Of a DNA stretch of 64,000 bases, positions 42,952-63,370 are shown piece by piece. The translations under genes were made by a program, and so were the position numbers. This DNA comes from a virus. Lineage: Duplodnaviria > Caudoviricetes. Numbering within the stretch: position 1 is the stretch's first letter; every line of letters starts with the position of its first letter. Where the stretch lies: IMG/VR virus record IMGVR_UViG_3300044723_007969. One strand, given 5' to 3'. The notes beneath the pieces were generated by a model. That model was given only the letters and a program-made list of their open reading frames with translations. It did not search any database and was not told the origin of the DNA.

Positions 42952-44448
42952 ATGGAATACACAGTAAACAAGAGTAACACTTCGGCATCGCCGAACAAGT
43001 ACACAGTACAAGATGGAATACTAAACAATCAAACTGATTTGAGTTTCATTGGAAGAGGTTACGCTGGTTACGGAGAAGTAATCGCTGAAAATTTCCTGCA
43101 TCTTTTAGAAAACTTTTCAAACGATTCTGCACCTAGTAAGCCAATACAAGGACAGTTATGGTATGACAGTTCGGCCAATAGGCTTAAAGTCTACACTGGT
43201 TCAGCATTCGTACCATCCGGAGGTAATGTTCCTTATCAATCAGACGCACCATCTGCCTTGACGCAGGGAGACCTATGGATAGACTCGGACACAGGCCAGA
43301 TGTATTTCTACAACGGTTCAAGTTCGGTGTTGGTAGGACCACCCAGTGCTTCGGGAACAACAAACGGTTTCACGTATGACAGCATACTGGACTCATTAGA
43401 CGCAACACAGAACATAACAAAATTATTCAATGATGGGAACCTGATAGCAATAATATCAGAGGACACCTTCACACCCAAAACAGGTATATCAGGGTTCGCA
43501 ACAGTAACAAAAGGTATCACACTATCAACAGCAATAGCAGACGTCAAGTTCTCAGGAACTGCCACAGATGCAGATGCATTAGGTGGAGTAGCGGCGGCCA
43601 ACTATCTGAGATCAAATTCCAATGACACCACATCAGGAACACTTGGTGTTGTTAATGACTCAGGGTTGACGGTTGGTGCTGACAGTGATTTACTTTTGAC
43701 GGTCGATGCGACAGGAGTTAATCTAACCAACGCCACGCAGGACACAGACATTTCAATCAAAGTGAATGATGGTGGTACAACCACTACCGTTCTCACAGTC
43801 GACGGTGCAACATCAAGAATTGGAATAGGCACCACGACACCGACAACGAAACTACAAGTTTCAGGAACAGTGACAGCAACAGCATTCGCAGGTCCTGTGA
43901 CAGGCGACCTAACAGGTAACGTTACTAGCACAGGCGCAAACTCGATGACCACTTTGACAATGGGTGGTACACTCACATCAAAAGCAATATTGCCAGATGC
44001 AACAACAACTTATGATTTAGGATCAACAAGCAAGAAATATAACACCGTACATGCAAAAGCAACATCGGCCCAATACGCTGACTTGGCAGAGATATATGAA
44101 TCAGACTCTAGGTATGACGTGGGAACAGTTGTCGTATTTGGCGGAGAAAAAGAAGTAACACAATCAACGATATCAAATGACACAAGGGTGGCAGGTGTCG
44201 TGAGTGAAAATCCTGCTTACCTAATGAACGACGAGTCCGAAGGACAAGCGATCGCACTTGTAGGAAAAGTCAAGTGTAAAGTACACGGAATGGTATCAAA
44301 AGGCGATCTTTTAACCACTTGTGGAACACATCCAGGCTGTGCCCAAAAGACGGCAAGTCCTGTGTTGGGTTCTGTGGTAGGAAAAGCAATGGAAAACAAG
44401 GATGATGCAGGAGAAAGTGTCATTTTAATAAGCGTAGGAAGACTATAA
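42952..44448 (+). CDS. Tail fibre / baseplate fibre protein, paralogue 1, with a C-terminal ADLAE (peptidase G2-like) chaperone domain
   Basis: N-terminal 'GYGEVIAENFLHLLENF...GQLWYD'; C-terminal 'YADLAEIY...GVVSENPAYLMN...IALVGKV'. Confidence 0.75.
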   Translation: MEYTVNKSNTSASPNKYTVQDGILNNQTDLSFIGRGYAGYGEVIAENFLHLLENFSNDSAPSKPIQGQLWYDSSANRLKVYTGSAFVPSGGNVPYQSDAPSALTQGDLWIDSDTGQMYFYNGSSSVLVGPPSASGTTNGFTYDSILDSLDATQNITKLFNDGNLIAIISEDTFTPKTGISGFATVTKGITLSTAIADVKFSGTATDADALGGVAAANYLRSNSNDTTSGTLGVVNDSGLTVGADSDLLLTVDATGVNLTNATQDTDISIKVNDGGTTTTVLTVDGATSRIGIGTTTPTTKLQVSGTVTATAFAGPVTGDLTGNVTSTGANSMTTLTMGGTLTSKAILPDATTTYDLGSTSKKYNTVHAKATSAQYADLAEIYESDSRYDVGTVVVFGGEKEVTQSTISNDTRVAGVVSENPAYLMNDESEGQAIALVGKVKCKVHGMVSKGDLLTTCGTHPGCAQKTASPVLGSVVGKAMENKDDAGESVILISVGRL

Positions 44449-44458
44449 ATACAGGTAT

Positions 44459-45874
44459 ATGGCGTACACAATCAATAAAACAGACGGCGGAACAGTAGCC
44501 ACGATCACAGACGGAACAGTAGACAACACTACTAGTTTGCAGTTGTTCGGAAAAAGTTATTCAGGATTTGGTGAGGGCCTTAACGAGAACCTTGTCAAAC
44601 TACTAGAGAATTCAGCAGGAACAGGAGCACCATCGGCACCATTGAGAGGTGAACTATGGTTCGACACAAACACAAACCAAATTAAAGTATATGATGGTTC
44701 AAGTTTCAAGCCCACAGGCGGTTCGAAAACAGGAAACACAGCGCCATCGTCACCATCAGTGGGTGACCTTTGGACAAACACAGACGACGACCAGATATTT
44801 GTCTACACAGGAGACTCAAGAACACACCAAGCAAACAACGGATGGGAATTGGTAGGTCCAGTGTTCACGGCAGGACAGACATTGTCCGGTTGGAAGATTG
44901 AAACTATTGCTAGTGCAGGTGGAAACAAGGTTGTTTCATCTATGTACGTGGGTAATACTAGAGTATGTATAGTTTCCAAGGAAGATTTCACACCTTCAGC
45001 AGTACAAACAGGATTTACAACAATCAAGTCAGGAATGACATTGAATTCAACTCTTGGAGCAGTGTTTGAAGGAACGAACACATCAGCAACCTTCTTGAAC
45101 GTATCAGGTACGACAAACAATTCAGGATTGATTGCAGGCGGTAACTTCCTGAGATCAGACGTGGCAGACACCACAACAGGTGGGCTGACCATTGACGCAG
45201 ATGCAGGATTGTCAATAGGTGATGATCAGGAATTGACAGTGACAGTCACAAGCAACAACGTCACTATTGCACAGACATCACAGGACAAAGATATAAAATT
45301 CACAGTGAACGATGGCGGAGTTACAAAAACTCCTCTACAATTGACAGGTGCGGACGGCGGCATTGACATGATAGGTGACCTTACAATCACAGGTAACTTG
45401 AATGTGAGTGGTGCTTACAACTACACATCATCTAACGTAGTTCAACACTCAGACACTTTCTTGAAAGTAAACGCAGGTGGTTCAGAAGTAGACGCAGGAC
45501 TTATAGTAGAAACATCAGACACAGATGATGCCAGAATGTTCTATGATGTGTCTGAAAACTTCTGGTCAGCAGGACATGGACAAGCATATTCACAGGTAAT
45601 CAGATTAGTGGACGCAGTCGAGGACGGCGATAACAACAAAGGTAAAGTTTTGAAAACCACAGCGGCAGGTAATGTCAAAGTTACTTCAGCAAACTTAGGT
45701 GTCGTAGGTTCAGCAATAGCAACGTCAGATACTTCAAGTACAGCAGTTCCGACAATAGGACAGGTTGCTACGTTTGGAAACCTTTGGGGTGGATCAGCGA
45801 AGTATGTAAACACTTCTGCTCCTACAAGCGGCGACGGAGTTGACGGAGATATTTGGTTCGTAAGGGAGGCGTAA
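44459..45874 (+). CDS. Tail fibre / baseplate fibre protein, paralogue 2
   Basis: Same N-terminal domain ('GFGEGLNENLVKLLEN...GELWFD'); ends 'APTSGDGVDGDIWF'; TATAAATA 7 nt before ATG. Confidence 0.75.
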   Translation: MAYTINKTDGGTVATITDGTVDNTTSLQLFGKSYSGFGEGLNENLVKLLENSAGTGAPSAPLRGELWFDTNTNQIKVYDGSSFKPTGGSKTGNTAPSSPSVGDLWTNTDDDQIFVYTGDSRTHQANNGWELVGPVFTAGQTLSGWKIETIASAGGNKVVSSMYVGNTRVCIVSKEDFTPSAVQTGFTTIKSGMTLNSTLGAVFEGTNTSATFLNVSGTTNNSGLIAGGNFLRSDVADTTTGGLTIDADAGLSIGDDQELTVTVTSNNVTIAQTSQDKDIKFTVNDGGVTKTPLQLTGADGGIDMIGDLTITGNLNVSGAYNYTSSNVVQHSDTFLKVNAGGSEVDAGLIVETSDTDDARMFYDVSENFWSAGHGQAYSQVIRLVDAVEDGDNNKGKVLKTTAAGNVKVTSANLGVVGSAIATSDTSSTAVPTIGQVATFGNLWGGSAKYVNTSAPTSGDGVDGDIWFVREA

Positions 45875-45880
45875 TCCCTT

Positions 45881-47308
45881 ATGGTAGCAATAGTTAAAAA
45901 ATTTTCATACACAGGCACAGTGCAAGAGGTAACGATACCCGCAGGCACACAATCAATTGACATATACCTATGGGGTGGCGCCGCAGGTGGTGGTGGCCCA
46001 GATGACAATCCGGGAGGACCAGGCACAGGTGGACAGCACGTCAAACACGTGGGTTACACTGGTGTAGCAAGTAACATAGGAAACACTCTACAGGTCGCAG
46101 TAGGCGGCGGTGGAGGTGGTGGATCATCAGGTGGTGGAGCACCGGGTGGTGTCAACGGAAAAAGTTTAACAAATTACTCAGGCGGGAGAGGTGGTAACGC
46201 AGGACCACAACCATATTCAGGTGGTGGAGGCGGTGGCGGAGGAGCCACAGTCTTAACAGTCAACGGAACAGCGACACACATTGCCGCAGGTGGTGGTGGC
46301 GGAGGTGGTGCAGGTAACCACTCGGGTTCAACACCAGGCATTAATTCTCACTCTGCACACTCACAAACACCAGCCACACTAGGACAGAACGGTGGAGATC
46401 ACTCTGGAGACGGAGGTGGTGGAGGTGCCGGTGGCGGTGGAGCCGCTGGAGGAAAAGGTGGAGCAGGTGGTTCAGGAGACAACACAGGTCAGGGTGGATA
46501 CACAGGTACAAGTTTATTCCAAACGGGAGGATCAAGTGCGGCGGCATCAGGAGTCACGCCAGGTGGAACGGGTGAGTCATACTACGTGGCAGGCACATCA
46601 GTTGGCGGAAACCCAGCCTCATCTGGATCAAATGGATATGCAGTTGTCGTTTTCAACATAGGAGTACAAGCAAACGTCAAAGTATCAGGATCATGGAAAG
46701 AAGTAAATGACATGTATACCAAAGTATCAGGTGCATGGAAACAGATCACAGCAGGCTATGTTAAGGTGGGCAGTGATTGGAAGGCACTGTTCAACGCAGG
46801 AGTGAACTTTATTGAAAACGCGGCAGGTTTTGGAAACTCAGCAGGTGTTAGTGGAGCGCCAGGTGGATCAGGTGGTGGCGGTGGTTGTTTCATAGCAGGC
46901 ACAATGATATCAATGCATGACGGTTCATTGAAACCAGTAGAGCAAGTGGACATAGGTGACACAGTTTCAGTAGGTGGTAAAGTTTTCGCAACAGGTAAAT
47001 TCTTGATAGACAACCTATACGATTACAATGGTATACAGGTATCAGGAACACACATGGTCAAGGAAGACGGTGCGTGGGTTAGAGTAGAGGACAGTAGATT
47101 AGGAGTATCACTAGGTGACGATGAAGTGATAGTGTACGTGTTTGGTAACGAGAACAGAAGAATTATAATCAACAACACAGAGTTCACAGACTACTTTGAA
47201 TTAAGTGAACAGCAAGAACTAACCAACCACGGCGAACAATTTTTTAGTAATTGGCAGGATCATGATAGACAGATACATGATAAAAATGTTAATATACTAA
47301 ATGCTTGA
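45881..47308 (+). CDS. Glycine-rich (polyglycine) adhesin-like protein with a C-terminal Hint autoprocessing domain
   Basis: Long GGGGG runs; 'VKVSGSWK' repeats; 'GGGG|CFIAGTMISMHDGSLKPVEQVDIGDTV' starting at 46886 and 'VSGTH' (Hint blocks A and B). Confidence 0.8.
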   Translation: MVAIVKKFSYTGTVQEVTIPAGTQSIDIYLWGGAAGGGGPDDNPGGPGTGGQHVKHVGYTGVASNIGNTLQVAVGGGGGGGSSGGGAPGGVNGKSLTNYSGGRGGNAGPQPYSGGGGGGGGATVLTVNGTATHIAAGGGGGGGAGNHSGSTPGINSHSAHSQTPATLGQNGGDHSGDGGGGGAGGGGAAGGKGGAGGSGDNTGQGGYTGTSLFQTGGSSAAASGVTPGGTGESYYVAGTSVGGNPASSGSNGYAVVVFNIGVQANVKVSGSWKEVNDMYTKVSGAWKQITAGYVKVGSDWKALFNAGVNFIENAAGFGNSAGVSGAPGGSGGGGGCFIAGTMISMHDGSLKPVEQVDIGDTVSVGGKVFATGKFLIDNLYDYNGIQVSGTHMVKEDGAWVRVEDSRLGVSLGDDEVIVYVFGNENRRIIINNTEFTDYFELSEQQELTNHGEQFFSNWQDHDRQIHDKNVNILNA

Positions 47309-47969
47309 TAAATCCTTTTACCACGGCCAACAAGGCGAGTGTTTCAAACAGTTAGAAAAATATTTTGAAGAGATCAAACACGAGTTTGATTCACAACCTA
47401 ACAAGGCTTTCTTAGATCCGGAAGATTTCTCAGATAGTGTTAGGGGACTTCCAGAAGACTTTGACGACAAGTCAGGTGACTATGTGCATGGCGAATGGCA
47501 AGCATTAGGCATACAATCAGGTGACCATGAGGGACAATCTTTCAATGACTATCCTATTCTATATTCCATACTGAGAAAATTTCCTTACAAAACAAATGTA
47601 GCGATAATGACTGTTGGTCCTAACACAAAGATCGGTAATCACACAGACAACGAAGGTGGATGGAGATATCAAATGTGCTTAGACGACGGTGGAGGAGACC
47701 AGAGTGGCATGCATGTGATGAACATTGAAACTCGTAAACAGGAACTGATGACTTGGAAAACAGGTGAAGCGTTTGTATTTCAACCAGATATACAAGTACA
47801 CAACGGATTCAATAGAAATCCAGGGCCAAGGACAACATTATTAATTGACTTTTACAAGGAATCATTGTACACTAAAGAGAAGTTCGAAGAGTATTACCAA
47901 CACTATTCGGAATGTTTTGAAGGGTTAGAAAATCTAGTGGATGTACATGAGACAAGAAAACAAAAATAA
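47301..47969 (+). CDS. Aspartyl/asparaginyl beta-hydroxylase-like 2OG-Fe(II) dioxygenase
   Basis: 'PNTKIGNHTD...RYQMCL', 'WKTGEAFVF...HNGFN...RTTLLIDF' (HxD...H triad). Confidence 0.8.
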   Translation: MLDKSFYHGQQGECFKQLEKYFEEIKHEFDSQPNKAFLDPEDFSDSVRGLPEDFDDKSGDYVHGEWQALGIQSGDHEGQSFNDYPILYSILRKFPYKTNVAIMTVGPNTKIGNHTDNEGGWRYQMCLDDGGGDQSGMHVMNIETRKQELMTWKTGEAFVFQPDIQVHNGFNRNPGPRTTLLIDFYKESLYTKEKFEEYYQHYSECFEGLENLVDVHETRKQK

Positions 47970-48525
47970 CAAGATTGCCATAATTGGTCACACAAAAGGT
48001 ATAGGCAAGGCCATAGCAGATCTGTACAGAAGAAAAAAATACGAGATTATTGGATTGAGTAGAAGTACAGGATATGATTTGGCAACAGATCAAGAAAAGA
48101 TAATGGAAAAACTAGTGGACTGTGAATTGATTGTAGTAAATGCATATGCTAAATTTGGACAGTATCACTTACTCAAAAGAATTTACAGTGAATTCCACCA
48201 TCATTACAAGAAGGTTGTAGTAATAACAAGCACGTCAGGTACACCACAGGGCAAAGACGAGGAAAATTATGGCGCCGACTACAACGAATACTGCTGGCAC
48301 AAAGAGCATCTGATAAAATACATCAGCGATTTACAAGAAGAGTTGTTCAATAAACCTTTGTCGGTGTATGACGTTTGTCCTGATGTAGTGGATACCGATA
48401 TGATAAAAGGATTATGGGAAGGACTGCCTAAACTCAAAGCGGATGAAGTAGCAGACACAGTGCGTTATTGCTTTGAATCACCTTTTAATATAAACAAGAT
48501 TGTGATACAAAAAAATGTTAGTTAG
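47941..48525 (+). CDS. Short-chain dehydrogenase/reductase
   Basis: 'IAIIGHTKGIGKAIA', 'VVNA', YxxxK 'YCWHK', 'CPDVVDTDM'. Confidence 0.8.
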   Translation: MYMRQENKNNKIAIIGHTKGIGKAIADLYRRKKYEIIGLSRSTGYDLATDQEKIMEKLVDCELIVVNAYAKFGQYHLLKRIYSEFHHHYKKVVVITSTSGTPQGKDEENYGADYNEYCWHKEHLIKYISDLQEELFNKPLSVYDVCPDVVDTDMIKGLWEGLPKLKADEVADTVRYCFESPFNINKIVIQKNVS

Positions 48526-48979
48526 ACCCTGGAACAGAGATAAGGATTATGACACACTAGTAAAGTGGTGGAGACAGTGGGAATTTGGCGTAGTGCCAAA
48601 AGAGTGTTTACCGCCGGAGGGTGTTATGGTAGAAGTAGATGGAAAACCAATTTGTGCCAGTGGACTATATGTGGGCCAAGGAACACAGTTTGGATTCATG
48701 GAATGGGTGGTATCAGACAAACAAGCAGATCGTAGAAAACTACACGAATCATTGAAATTATGTATCGATAGCATAATGTCATTGGCCAAAGACAAGGGGT
48801 TAAAACTGGTTTACACTGCTACCAAGCACGAAGCATTGGGCAAAAGATATCAAAAATACCACGAAATGATGCTCACAGAGAGTAATGTAAAGACTTTCCT
48901 ACGAGATTTAGACGGAAATTACACAAACGATTTAGAGTGGATACAGGACGAAGAGCAATACTTCAAAGGCAATAAATAA
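48515..48979 (+). CDS. GNAT-fold acetyltransferase-like protein
   Basis: 154 aa; 'MVEVDGKPICASGLY', 'LAKDKGLKLVYT' follow the GNAT topology. Confidence 0.55.
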   Translation: MLVRPWNRDKDYDTLVKWWRQWEFGVVPKECLPPEGVMVEVDGKPICASGLYVGQGTQFGFMEWVVSDKQADRRKLHESLKLCIDSIMSLAKDKGLKLVYTATKHEALGKRYQKYHEMMLTESNVKTFLRDLDGNYTNDLEWIQDEEQYFKGNK

Positions 48980-48998
48980 GCATAAGGAGAACATTTAA

Positions 48999-49175
48999 AT
49001 GGCAACAAAACAAGAAGTGGCAGACTATATCAATGATAATTTCGAGACAGTCTGGACAGCAGAAGAGCAGACGAAAGTCGATCAGATGCTTAATCCAGCA
49101 CTAGCGGAGATTTTAATCAAACTAGTAGGTGACGTAAGTTTCTTGACTGAAGTTAGAGATAACAGATCTAACTAA
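48999..49175 (+). CDS. Unannotated 58-aa protein (MATKQEVADYINDNFETVW...)
   Basis: AATAAATA late box, SD AAGGAG, open frame ending 8 nt before the next gene. Confidence 0.75.
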   Translation: MATKQEVADYINDNFETVWTAEEQTKVDQMLNPALAEILIKLVGDVSFLTEVRDNRSN

Positions 49176-49183
49176 TTTGGGAT

Positions 49184-50833
49184 ATGGCATACAACATTAA
49201 CAACACATTCGGGACCTTATTGGTCACATTACCAGATGGTACAATCGATACCACTACTACCGACCTTGCGTTGTTTGGAAAGAGTTATGCAGGGTTTGGT
49301 GAAAAGTTAAATGAGAATCTTGTCAAACTACTAGAGAACTTCAACAACACTTCGGCTCCTAACAACAAAATTCAAGGTCAACTTTGGTTTGACCAAACTA
49401 ATAAACAAATTAATGTATATGACGGTACAAAATTTAAACCAGTAGGTTCTCCAACTCCTTCAACTGCACAGCCAACAAACGCTGTATTGGGTGATGAATG
49501 GTTTGACACAAACGCAAATCAGTTCTACATCTACAACGGTGCAGACTGGACACTGATCGGACCAACAACAGTTGCAGGATCAGGTGTAACACAGGTGATA
49601 CCAGAAACAGCACCAGACGACACAGGTGTAAATCAGTCATATCTTAAACTGGTAGCCAACGACGCAGTGGTCGGTGTTGTATCAGATGTGGCATTCACTC
49701 CGAGCGCCACGGACACAGTATCTCAAGCATTGGTCACAGCAGGTTTTGCCACAGTGGGACAAGGTATACAACTTTCAAGTTCGGTTGCGGCAGTAAAATT
49801 CAGAGGAACAGCCACAGACACAGACGCAATGGGCGGAGTGGCCGCGGCCAACTATCTCAGATCAGACACTAACGACACGACAACAGGTAGATTGACCGTA
49901 CAGAACGACCTAGGAATTAGAATAGGTGGTGGACTGGATATCAACATGTCTATGTCAGGTGATGATTTCACAATAGCAAACACCACTAGTAATGGTGACA
50001 TCGCTTTCACGTTGAATTCAACAGTGTTTGGTGGAACAAGGAAAGTGATGGACATGGATGGAGGAACAGGACGTGTCAACATATTTGAGGGCGGAAACAT
50101 CACATGTGATAACTTGACAGTCAGAGGAACACAGGTGATAATGAACACTTCTACACTCTCAGTTGAGGACAACATAATAGAACTCAACAGGAACATTTCA
50201 TCAAACGCGGCCACACCAAAATTCACAGGAATCAAAGTCAAAAGAGGATCTGTGTCCTCAGCAATAGAACAGGACCTATTTTGGGTATGGGACGAGACTT
50301 TCGCAGACGATGGCTCAACAACTTACGGAAATGCAGGTGGTGCCTTTACAGCATTCAAGTCAGGTGGTGGAGACGACGAATTATCGGCACCTACTCTAGT
50401 TGATATAAGGGCCAATGTAGTACATGCCACAACAACATCGGCCATGTACGCAGACTTGGCAGAGAGATATGAAGCCGACTGTGAGACAGAAGTGGGAGAT
50501 GTGGTGATGCTAGGAGGACATGCAGAGATCACCAAGTGCAACAAAGAACTTTGTGACCAAGTTTTTGGGGTGATTTCAGATTCTCCAGCGTTTTTGATGA
50601 ATGCCCAAGCGGGAAACAACGATTCACACCCCATGGTGGCACTAAAAGGACGTGTTTTTGTCAAAATACAGGGTACTGGTAAAGCAGGAGATCGTGTTGT
50701 ATCAGCAGGAAACGGTGAAGCAAGGATCGCCGAGTTGGACGAATGTACCGCTTTTAACACACTCGGTAGACTGCTCAAGGATAAATACAACAAAGAAACA
50801 GCATTAACAGAATGCGTAATAGGGGTTAAATAA
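49184..50833 (+). CDS. Tail fibre / baseplate fibre protein, paralogue 3, with a C-terminal ADLAE chaperone domain
   Basis: Same N-terminal domain; 'YADLAERY...GVISDSPAFLMN...VALKGRV'. Confidence 0.75.
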   Translation: MAYNINNTFGTLLVTLPDGTIDTTTTDLALFGKSYAGFGEKLNENLVKLLENFNNTSAPNNKIQGQLWFDQTNKQINVYDGTKFKPVGSPTPSTAQPTNAVLGDEWFDTNANQFYIYNGADWTLIGPTTVAGSGVTQVIPETAPDDTGVNQSYLKLVANDAVVGVVSDVAFTPSATDTVSQALVTAGFATVGQGIQLSSSVAAVKFRGTATDTDAMGGVAAANYLRSDTNDTTTGRLTVQNDLGIRIGGGLDINMSMSGDDFTIANTTSNGDIAFTLNSTVFGGTRKVMDMDGGTGRVNIFEGGNITCDNLTVRGTQVIMNTSTLSVEDNIIELNRNISSNAATPKFTGIKVKRGSVSSAIEQDLFWVWDETFADDGSTTYGNAGGAFTAFKSGGGDDELSAPTLVDIRANVVHATTTSAMYADLAERYEADCETEVGDVVMLGGHAEITKCNKELCDQVFGVISDSPAFLMNAQAGNNDSHPMVALKGRVFVKIQGTGKAGDRVVSAGNGEARIAELDECTAFNTLGRLLKDKYNKETALTECVIGVK

Positions 50834-62836: not shown

Positions 62837-63370
62837 ATGTTGAACAAGAAACCTAAATTTGAACTGGTGGAGTTACCCTACATCGACGTGTCAGAGGATC
62901 CTGTGAGACCGGAATTGAGTCTAGAGTTCAGACAGGCGTACGGCAGGAAGATATACGGTATCAAGGACGAGGAGGGTGACATCGCCGCGGTGATGTGTTT
63001 CGCATTCACACACGGCATACCCAAGAGCGTTGAGGAGATGGATGCCATGAGCCGGGACGCCGCCATGCAGGCCATACACAGGGCGGGGGTGCAGGGTTCG
63101 ATAGCGATAGCATACACGGTGTGGGCCAAGAAGAAGGGTGGAGGAAAGCACATAGTGAACGAGGTGTACAAGATGATCAAGGGATCACATCACATAGATA
63201 GATTGATAACACTGTCACCATTGACAGACATGGCCAGGAAGTTCCACTTGAAGAACGGAGCCAAGGAGGTGCAAGTGAATCTGACCACGCAGAACTTCGA
63301 ATATAATGTGGAATTGTCCGAATGGGAGAAGTTCCGAGACAAGGCCAAACGGGTGTTGAGGATAGCATAA
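62837..63370 (+). CDS. GNAT-like hypothetical protein
   Basis: 'YTVWAKKKGGGKHIV', 'LSPLTDMARKFHLKNGA' resemble GNAT motifs A and B. Confidence 0.55.
   Translation: MLNKKPKFELVELPYIDVSEDPVRPELSLEFRQAYGRKIYGIKDEEGDIAAVMCFAFTHGIPKSVEEMDAMSRDAAMQAIHRAGVQGSIAIAYTVWAKKKGGGKHIVNEVYKMIKGSHHIDRLITLSPLTDMARKFHLKNGAKEVQVNLTTQNFEYNVELSEWEKFRDKAKRVLRIA

Follow-up and report, generated by a model that had tools for sequence, protein, structure and literature searches.

A C-terminal Hint cassette with a partner gene on a putative tail-fibre tip protein of an uncultured marine T4-like phage

The DNA described here, referred to throughout as the window, is a stretch of 64,000 nucleotides (nt) from an uncultured marine T4-like phage (IMG/VR record IMGVR_UViG_3300044723_007969), with positions numbered from its first letter. 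On its + strand an open reading frame (ORF) of 475 amino acids (aa; 45881-47308) ends in a minimal Hint domain followed by a short helical tail. The Hint of this C-terminal cassette belongs to a new subfamily, which has an obligate partner gene, p17, and optional tailoring enzymes, an AspH-like oxygenase and a short-chain dehydrogenase/reductase (SDR). The analysis establishes the folds, the conserved residues, the pairing of the genes and the shuffling of the cassette between proteins. The reading adopted for the 475-aa protein, with a little better than even confidence, is that it forms the tip of a tail fibre, binds the receptor and is synthesised as a precursor whose C-terminal cassette serves in processing.

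The Hint module and the proteins that carry it

Hint domains are known from inteins, hedgehog proteins and bacterial toxins. In the window protein the minimal 102-aa Hint fold occupies residues 336-437 (46886-47191, + strand), with Cys336 at position 1, His391 in block B and Asp437 as its last residue; the Cys336 codon (46886-46888) lies directly after GGGGG. Residues 326-475 folded alone from a diverse alignment gave a model with a predicted local distance difference test score (pLDDT) of 86 and a Foldseek probability of 1.00 to Hint structures. With VIA-align the best match was BIL2 of Tetrahymena BUBL1 (PDB 6y75; Z 14.7, root-mean-square deviation (rmsd) 1.8 over 109 residues), followed by the BIL of C. 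thermocellum (2lwy) and by PI-SceI (both Z 13.8), mini-inteins (Z about 13) and hedgehog (PDB 1at0; Z 11.9). In the structural register Cys336 corresponds to intein residue 1, Thr436 to the penultimate His and Asp437 to the terminal Asn, and the family profile matches intein block A (E 5e-6). His-Asn is not present. The terminal motif is F-T-D-Y-F-E, and the 38 residues beyond the fold (438-475; 47192-47305, + strand), conserved in the alignment and ending ..NILNA, are modelled as two helices; the last codons of this tail overlap the start codon of the next gene. An earlier note on this DNA made from the sequence alone (hereafter the original prediction) had placed the Hint cysteine at 46886 and remarked on the missing C-terminal HN, both of which are confirmed by the fold and the codon. 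It had also given the ending as 'EFTDYFE' plus about 30 aa, where the motif is as described and the tail proves to be 38 aa long, and had called the domain 'Hog-type', a label that finds no specific support, since hedgehog is matched no better than BIL and intein structures are.

Conservation was counted over 137 family representatives clustered at 50% identity. Cys1 is kept in 135 of these, Phe2 in 136, the block-B His in 135 (the Thr of TxxH being mostly Ser), the Asp at the intein-Asn position in 136 and a Tyr or Phe at +1 in 135, and the residue at -1 is Gly in 92. Within the window's lineage the Hint module is far better conserved than the body of the protein. The fold, the position-1 nucleophile and the block-B His are those of the Hint superfamily. 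The features of an intein are lacking: Thr436-Asp437 stands for His-Asn, the +1 residue is Tyr, and only the 38-aa tail lies downstream. Nor does the terminal module, ending F-T-D-Y, have the His-Asn without downstream nucleophile that characterises A-type BIL domains. Pfam Hint_2 (PF13403, B-type BIL) gave no match to the window protein and a single match among 65 representatives, which fell on an upstream copy and not on the terminal module. Because the invariant Asp437 sits at the site of the intein terminal Asn, the window Hint is predicted from the model to be a 102-residue minimal Hint unable to splice by the canonical route. Conservation of both the Hint Cys and the block-B His makes autoprocessing at the Gly-Cys junction of the tip protein likely. 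The near-invariant Asp-Tyr-x-Glu motif and the conserved tail would exceed the needs of simple N-terminal cleavage; the tail has no detectable similarity to sterol- or adduct-recognition regions.

An exhaustive search with residues 250-475 as query (E<=1e-3) recovered a Hint family of 2087 cluster representatives (at 50% identity) from ocean viromes. The last ~140 residues are 55-65% identical and stand at the extreme C-terminus of proteins of 188-1809 aa with unrelated bodies. Those bodies that can be identified are of virion or lysis type, including DUF4815/VrlC-like 'adsorption-associated tail proteins' (1600-1800 aa), LysM proteins, tail lysozyme and transglycosylase. When 2016 locus pairs were compared, 1415 had bodies that could not be aligned, yet their Hint modules were 47-86% identical; in 26 pairs with bodies below 20% identity, Hint identity exceeded 80% and the median identity of p17 was 82%. 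The fibre type of the window, named TG for its TNF-like and polyglycine domain, carries different cassette types in sister lineages. Because Hint and p17 both stay similar across unrelated bodies, they move jointly, as a unit, between different proteins. In cultured phages tblastn found no match to the Hint module and matched only the hairpin repeats that precede it in the window protein, and a single-Hint query against one genome per species from 185,579 prokaryote species returned generic block-A matches only and no true relative.

Two variants of the family may be recorded here. Some relatives (L036:8001-10070, P0124; and representatives such as P0224) have, immediately before the terminal Hint, additional BIL-like Hint copies ending in HN, with up to seven matched stretches in one protein. 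These extra copies end ..VVHNKG/CF (the slash marking the junction) and are not canonical inteins, their +1 residue being Lys. A subgroup (L260-L283, e.g. L260:381-1514) matches the Hint profile to position 123 only; its helical tail is shortened or different, and its overlap with p17 is ~23 nt instead of 8.

The partner gene p17 and the optional enzyme genes

The gene p17 (phrog_17252; 48515-48979, + strand) encodes a protein of 154 aa. Seen from the Hint side, it is the next gene in 41 of 41 loci outside the window's lineage that include downstream DNA; in the window's lineage it comes after Hint, AspH and SDR. Seen from the p17 side, every one of the 77 loci that include upstream DNA has an ORF ending in a Hint immediately before p17, mostly with a start-stop overlap of 8 nt. 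The sister lineage (L036/L037) keeps the synteny, with a tip protein 48% identical over the TG domain, and there Hint is followed by a p17 homologue and then by a small protein, with no AspH or SDR. The unrelated phage L038 has p17 next to a Hint protein of 955 aa, the stop of the Hint gene overlapping the start of p17. Judged by these neighbourhoods, p17 appears to be an obligate partner of the Hint module, and a functional link between the two is highly probable.

Searches of Pfam, NCBIfam and the PDB, fibre chaperones in the PDB included, gave no sequence match to p17, and a profile search returned close relatives only, none with Pfam labels. Distant homologues, 24-33% identical, are encoded by several cultured phages of Bacteroidota, namely Cellulophaga phi46:3 (gp113), Tenacibaculum Gundel_1, Maribacter Panino and Flavobacterium elemo phages. 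A p17 profile that included three distant homologues was compared by hhalign with 15 E. coli PF00583 proteins and aligned to the GNAT profile with a score of 35.0 (P 4.5e-5, probability 69%), 85 columns being in register from beta2 to alpha4; reversed profiles scored 14.1 and 30 column shuffles at most 18.5. The nearest named ESM Atlas clusters, which are protein-language-model neighbours, are GNAT families. A GNAT-like fold is thus probable for p17, as hhalign and the Atlas neighbours support it. At the site of the coenzyme A (CoA) loop the window protein reads D-K-Q-A-D-R-R-K-L and the other subfamily N-P-K-T-G-K-I-K-L, neither with a Gly pattern, and Cys47 is invariant, also in homologues that have no Hint neighbour.

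A few observations and rejected candidates belong with p17. Homologues were located at L183:5980-6390 (phi46:3 gp113), L182:5974-6384 and L184:4974-5384. The protein preceding gp113, phi46:3 gp112, has a crAss-like muzzle C-terminal domain (E 5e-20); a 241-aa protein of the window considered as its relative proved unrelated on comparison, as did the MW202828 structural protein before a p17-like gene, considered as a relative of the tip protein. A 177-aa ORF of the window (62837-63370) was considered as a GNAT reference and set aside for the E. coli PF00583 proteins, having no Pfam GNAT match at E<0.01. Its best match is a 3A movement protein (E 0.006), and it has 60 IMG/VR relatives with identity down to 29%.

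In the window two optional genes lie between Hint and p17. The first (47301-47969, + strand; 222 aa) encodes an AspH-like Fe(II)/2-oxoglutarate (2OG) oxygenase that matches PF05118 (E 1.5e-10, 41.6 bits against a curated cut-off of 22.6), with H114, D116, H167 and R177, the HxD...H triad and the 2OG-binding Arg, invariant in 33 sequences. The second (47941-48525, + strand) encodes an SDR of 194 aa, shorter than usual, which scores 30.0 bits for adh_short against a cut-off of 26.6 and has G16/G20/G22, S97/S99 and Y117/K121 invariant in 32-33 sequences. By these residues both enzymes look catalytically intact. Neither has a tblastn match in cultured phages, and both are absent from L036/L037 and about 40 other cassettes. 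A search seeded with AspH found it directly after the Hint ORF and before SDR and p17 in all of 44 loci; SDR is always found together with AspH. The window's TG-fibre lineage accounts for 37 of these loci. In the remaining seven, AspH is 44-48% identical and stands behind a Gly-poor VrlC-like body with the junction ...CRRG/CF. AspH accordingly accompanies two bodies with no relation to each other, that of the TG fibre and that of a VrlC/DUF4815-like tail protein, and the idea that AspH and SDR are a one-off, lineage-specific insertion was dropped in view of the diverged copies in cassettes on the VrlC-like body. Two of these seven loci have a second, diverged AspH paralogue of 250 aa between SDR and p17 (L386:3635-4384 and L390:3635-4384; E 6e-32 to the window AspH).

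The gene junctions show how the optional pair arrived. The Hint/AspH junction reads AAT GCT TGA across the AspH ATG, the SDR/p17 junction AAT GTT AGT TAG across the p17 ATG, and the Hint/p17 junction of L038 AAT GCA AGT TAG across the p17 ATG. The SDR/p17 junction thus copies the Hint/p17 junction, a fossil of the insertion of AspH and SDR at the Hint/p17 boundary. The two genes are optional yet appear dedicated to the cassette that runs from Hint to p17. Their confinement to it supports a common substrate with the cassette; that they act on the fibre or on its adduct is a serious possibility, rated somewhat short of even.

The original prediction had proposed as Hint partners an AspH-like dioxygenase, an SDR and a GNAT gene, and had suggested co-occurrence of these genes with Hint fibres as a check. 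The dioxygenase is upheld by a PF05118 score above cut-off and an invariant iron triad and Arg, and the SDR by an adh_short score above cut-off and invariant catalytic residues. The GNAT gene is the weakest of the three assignments: the fold finds support, but Pfam and NCBIfam give no match and the CoA loop is degenerate. Co-occurrence is complete for p17, paired in every locus in both directions, and not for AspH and SDR, which are optional; these two seem dedicated to the cassette but are missing from most cassettes.

The tip protein and its locus

The body of the 475-aa protein begins with a TNF-like and polyglycine (TG/GRD) domain, residues 1-261 (45881-46663, + strand), presumed to be the receptor-binding tip. 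In an AlphaFold model built from 44 homologues the Gly-rich residues 1-260 are modelled confidently (pLDDT >90). Structural alignment with VIA-align matched residues 1-261 to the TG domain of LTK/ALK (Z 14.9, 174 residues, rmsd 2.8), to fibre gp24 of cyanophage Pam3 (Z 14.1) and to a tail-tip chain of mycobacteriophage Bxb1 (9d93_Qa; Z 13.5). These superpositions span 166-174 residues and include both the TNF-like sandwich and the polyglycine lattice, so that the polyglycine adhesin first predicted is confirmed, on the model and by its structural matches, as a TG fold. The tip protein scores 17.6 for PF21722, under the cut-off of 24.3, and PF21722 is recorded for several close homologues. In Pam3 the TG domain lies at the far tip of the fibre, where it binds the receptor, and the fibre requires a separate chaperone whose C-terminal helices drive trimerisation (PMC9608196).

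The TG domain is followed by three ~14-aa 'KV.G.WK' hairpin repeats, or Trp-hairpins (residues 263-310; 46667-46810, + strand), which are predicted as short strands, match phrog_25859 (E 8e-9) and have tblastn matches in S-SKS1 and Ralstonia jumbo phages. A G/S-rich linker with a terminal GGGGG (residues 311-335; 46811-46885, + strand) then leads to the Hint module, Gly335 being the -1 residue of the putative scissile bond. The N-terminal anchor domain of the three neighbouring fibres is missing from the tip protein, which most likely attaches to the virion via its C-terminal side.

The tip gene is the first of five densely packed + strand genes flanked on both sides by tail-fibre paralogues, and all five ORFs first reported inside this fibre cluster are present on that strand with their overlaps (8, 29 and 11 nt between successive genes among the first four). 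The gene order is identical in 35 of 35 close relatives in IMG/VR. Between 42000 and 52500 no terminator-like site was found on the + strand, and promoter-like sites were no more frequent than expected by chance. The fifth gene (48999-49175, + strand) encodes a 58-aa protein conserved in T4-like lineages only, with 53-86% identity across them, the sister L036 without AspH and SDR included. It has no family match and is not present in non-T4-like cassettes, and in some relatives (L066, L075-L077) the gene is tandemly duplicated. Immediately 5' of the tip gene lies a fibre paralogue (44459-45874, + strand), a candidate for the shaft to which the tip protein would belong; it has the N-terminal anchor common to the other two fibres but lacks a self-cleaving chaperone domain at its C-terminus. 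The other two fibres (42952-44448 and 49184-50833) have such an autoproteolytic domain, resembling Peptidase_G2/IMC (E 1.5e-4 and 7.9e-6), at their C-terminal end, and the anchor common to all three paralogues is ~90 aa long with an Mtd_N-like motif. The phage itself is distant from those in culture: a near-DNA search of 50,697 cultured phage genomes gave no match to the window, a full-length protein search of cultured phages gave none to the tip protein, and a 4296-aa structural protein of the window is only ~29% identical to proteins of jumbo and T4-like phages.

Proposed processing, alternatives and known systems

In the route proposed for the cassette, Cys336 would attack the carbonyl of Gly335 in an N-to-S acyl shift aided by His391, and the final peptide bond of the fibre part would become a thioester at Gly335-Cys336. 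Resolution of the thioester would detach the 140-aa unit of Hint and helical tail and leave a mature tip ending in polyglycine. The thioester step is where p17 would most likely act: it might hand the glycyl terminus over to an acceptor, or it might acylate the Cys336 amino group that the shift exposes and so make the shift irreversible. AspH and SDR, inserted in this lineage exactly at the Hint/p17 junction, turned up nowhere outside cassettes in the searches made and therefore would probably modify the same substrate or product. The parts of this route differ in strength. Cleavage itself is very probable; that p17 acts chemically on the thioester is tentative, and rather more doubtful than not; and the explanation as a whole, with thioester self-cleavage and processing linked to p17, is modestly favoured.

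Several points weigh against it. The cleavage of the tip precursor, strongly expected as it is, is read from sequence and model, and no cultured phage carries the Hint module as judged by tblastn. Cultured T4-like phages (HTVC008M, Cr30, Melnitz, a Rhizobium phage and cyanomyoviruses) have VrlC-like orthologues that align to residues 4-1385 only and lack the Hint, so that the cassette is dispensable for that body. Distant homologues of p17 adjoin structural genes and no Hint, and the basic role of p17 therefore need not involve a thioester; p17 also has neither the Q/RxxGxG/A CoA pyrophosphate loop nor a Pfam GNAT match, and for these reasons may not be an enzyme. Neighbouring genes are inherited together regardless of cooperation, and no Hint-p17 fusion was found among the longer proteins searched, which is weak evidence.

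The best placed of the rival explanations, though unlikely, makes the cassette a plain removable assembly tag, in which Hint and the two-helix tail would serve as an intramolecular chaperone or trimerisation handle, removed by its own hydrolysis, with p17 as a non-enzymatic assembly factor. Such a tag would suit the Peptidase_G2/IMC-like autoproteolytic C-terminal domains of two neighbouring fibres, the dependence of the Pam3 TG fibre on a chaperone with trimerising C-terminal helices (PMC9608196), the helical tail of the cassette in the model and the absence of a canonical CoA loop from p17. It fits less well with cassettes on lysozyme, LysM and transglycosylase bodies, and with VrlC-like bodies of 1600-1800 aa that fold without a cassette in cultured phages; p17 has no sequence similarity to solved structures, fibre chaperones included, and no role is left for a dedicated oxygenase and SDR.

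Covalent ligation by the cassette is possible, but as a full account it is improbable. Here an amine, such as a Lys of the upstream fibre shaft, of another virion protein or of a host-envelope molecule, would resolve the thioester, p17 would be an acyl-transferase and the tip would be covalently anchored. GNAT enzymes move acyl groups from thioesters to amines, which is the chemistry this account asks for, and it would also accommodate a tip protein without the N-terminal anchor of its three fibre neighbours and a -1 Gly in 92 of 137 representatives. The best structural match, BIL2 of BUBL1 (Z 14.7), is reported to make Lys isopeptide bonds without ATP (PMC8616854) and therefore offers a precedent for ligation. 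The acceptor, however, is only hypothetical, the Z values of BIL2, inteins and hedgehog lie within about 3, and in p17 the CoA loop is degenerate and Cys47 is kept in Hint-less homologues too. In its most far-reaching form, unlikely to a similar degree, Hint and p17 would be an ATP-independent phage protein-ligation system in which the GNAT-fold partner passes the polyglycyl thioester to an amine of the virion or the host surface. The optional oxygenase and SDR would then alter the linkage, for instance by hydroxylation of the acceptor or reductive release of the thioester.

Less probable still is a selfish 3'-end element, in which Hint and p17, with or without AspH and SDR, would spread between phage genes while Hint, like an intein, cuts the insertion off the host protein and thereby renders it harmless. 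Cassettes >80% identical on unrelated bodies, orthologues without a cassette and the same TG fibre with two cassette types in sister lineages would all be expected of such an element. On the other hand, the cassette holds no nuclease or recombinase, the identifiable bodies are of virion or lysis type and not random genes, Asp437, Tyr438, Glu440 and the helical tail are conserved beyond the needs of N-terminal cleavage, and translational coupling is strictly kept. The model put forward with the original prediction is the least probable. In it a Hint of hedgehog type would pass the adhesin on to a small-molecule nucleophile that the tail recognises, and the three enzymes would tailor the adduct, making up a putative system of receptor-binding diversification. 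The Gly-Cys-Phe junction and conserved post-Hint extension do resemble the hedgehog layout, AspH and SDR appear dedicated to the cassette, and small molecules are common substrates of SDR-family reductases and 2OG oxygenases, but hedgehog is not the closest structure (Z 11.9 vs 14.7), the tail of just 38 aa has no detectable sterol-recognition similarity, and most cassettes have neither AspH nor SDR.

With thioester self-cleavage and p17-linked processing retained as the preferred explanation, the cassette looks like an undescribed way of maturing virion proteins; full-text searches of the literature turned up no account of a Hint serving as a standard C-terminal cassette on phage tail proteins, nor of one paired with a GNAT or an obligate partner enzyme. 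Ocean viromes hold the family in abundance (>2000 clusters at 50% identity), the cultured phages searched do not have it, and for that reason it may take part in a so far unstudied step by which widespread marine phages assemble or arm the structures that recognise their hosts. The pairing of Hint and p17 lends itself to testing as a simple system of two proteins. Should p17 act on a protein thioester, a new enzyme logic with possible use in protein ligation would follow, and the chance that a new ligation system is at hand is modest but real.

Among known systems, Pam3 gp24, the ALK/LTK TG domains and the polyglycine 'brush' domains of mycobacteriophage tail tips have their fold in common with residues 1-261. 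In contrast to Pam3 gp24, the TG domain of the window protein is N-terminal and has no helical docking domain, and the protein ends in Hint, whereas the Pam3 fibre relies on a separate gp25-type chaperone. The Peptidase_S74/G2 fibre chaperone domains, present on two neighbouring fibres, are likewise C-terminal and expected to remove themselves after assembly; their fold and chemistry are unrelated, with a Ser-Lys dyad in place of a Cys thioester, and the Hint cassette is also found on non-fibre bodies and with dedicated enzyme genes. Hedgehog/Hog domains (1at0) resemble the window Hint in the Gly-Cys-Phe junction, the absence of a splicing Asn, the extra C-terminal region and an N-terminal product that is the functional part. 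They are eukaryotic where the window Hint is viral, and the latter matches them at a lower Z (11.9), with no detectable sterol-recognition region and no evidence for a lipid nucleophile. Closest are the BIL domains (BIL2, 6y75; C. thermocellum, 2lwy), which have the same Hint fold, position-1 Cys and block-B His and, like the window Hint, are placed in variable, non-housekeeping proteins and expected to cleave and not to splice; relatives in sister phages even carry true HN-ended BIL-like copies in tandem upstream. The window-type Hint differs from them in ending T-D-Y instead of H-N and in having no Pfam Hint_2 match. It is, in the searches made, restricted to uncultured marine phages, where it is always the last domain, followed by its conserved 38-aa helical tail, and always paired with a GNAT-like gene.

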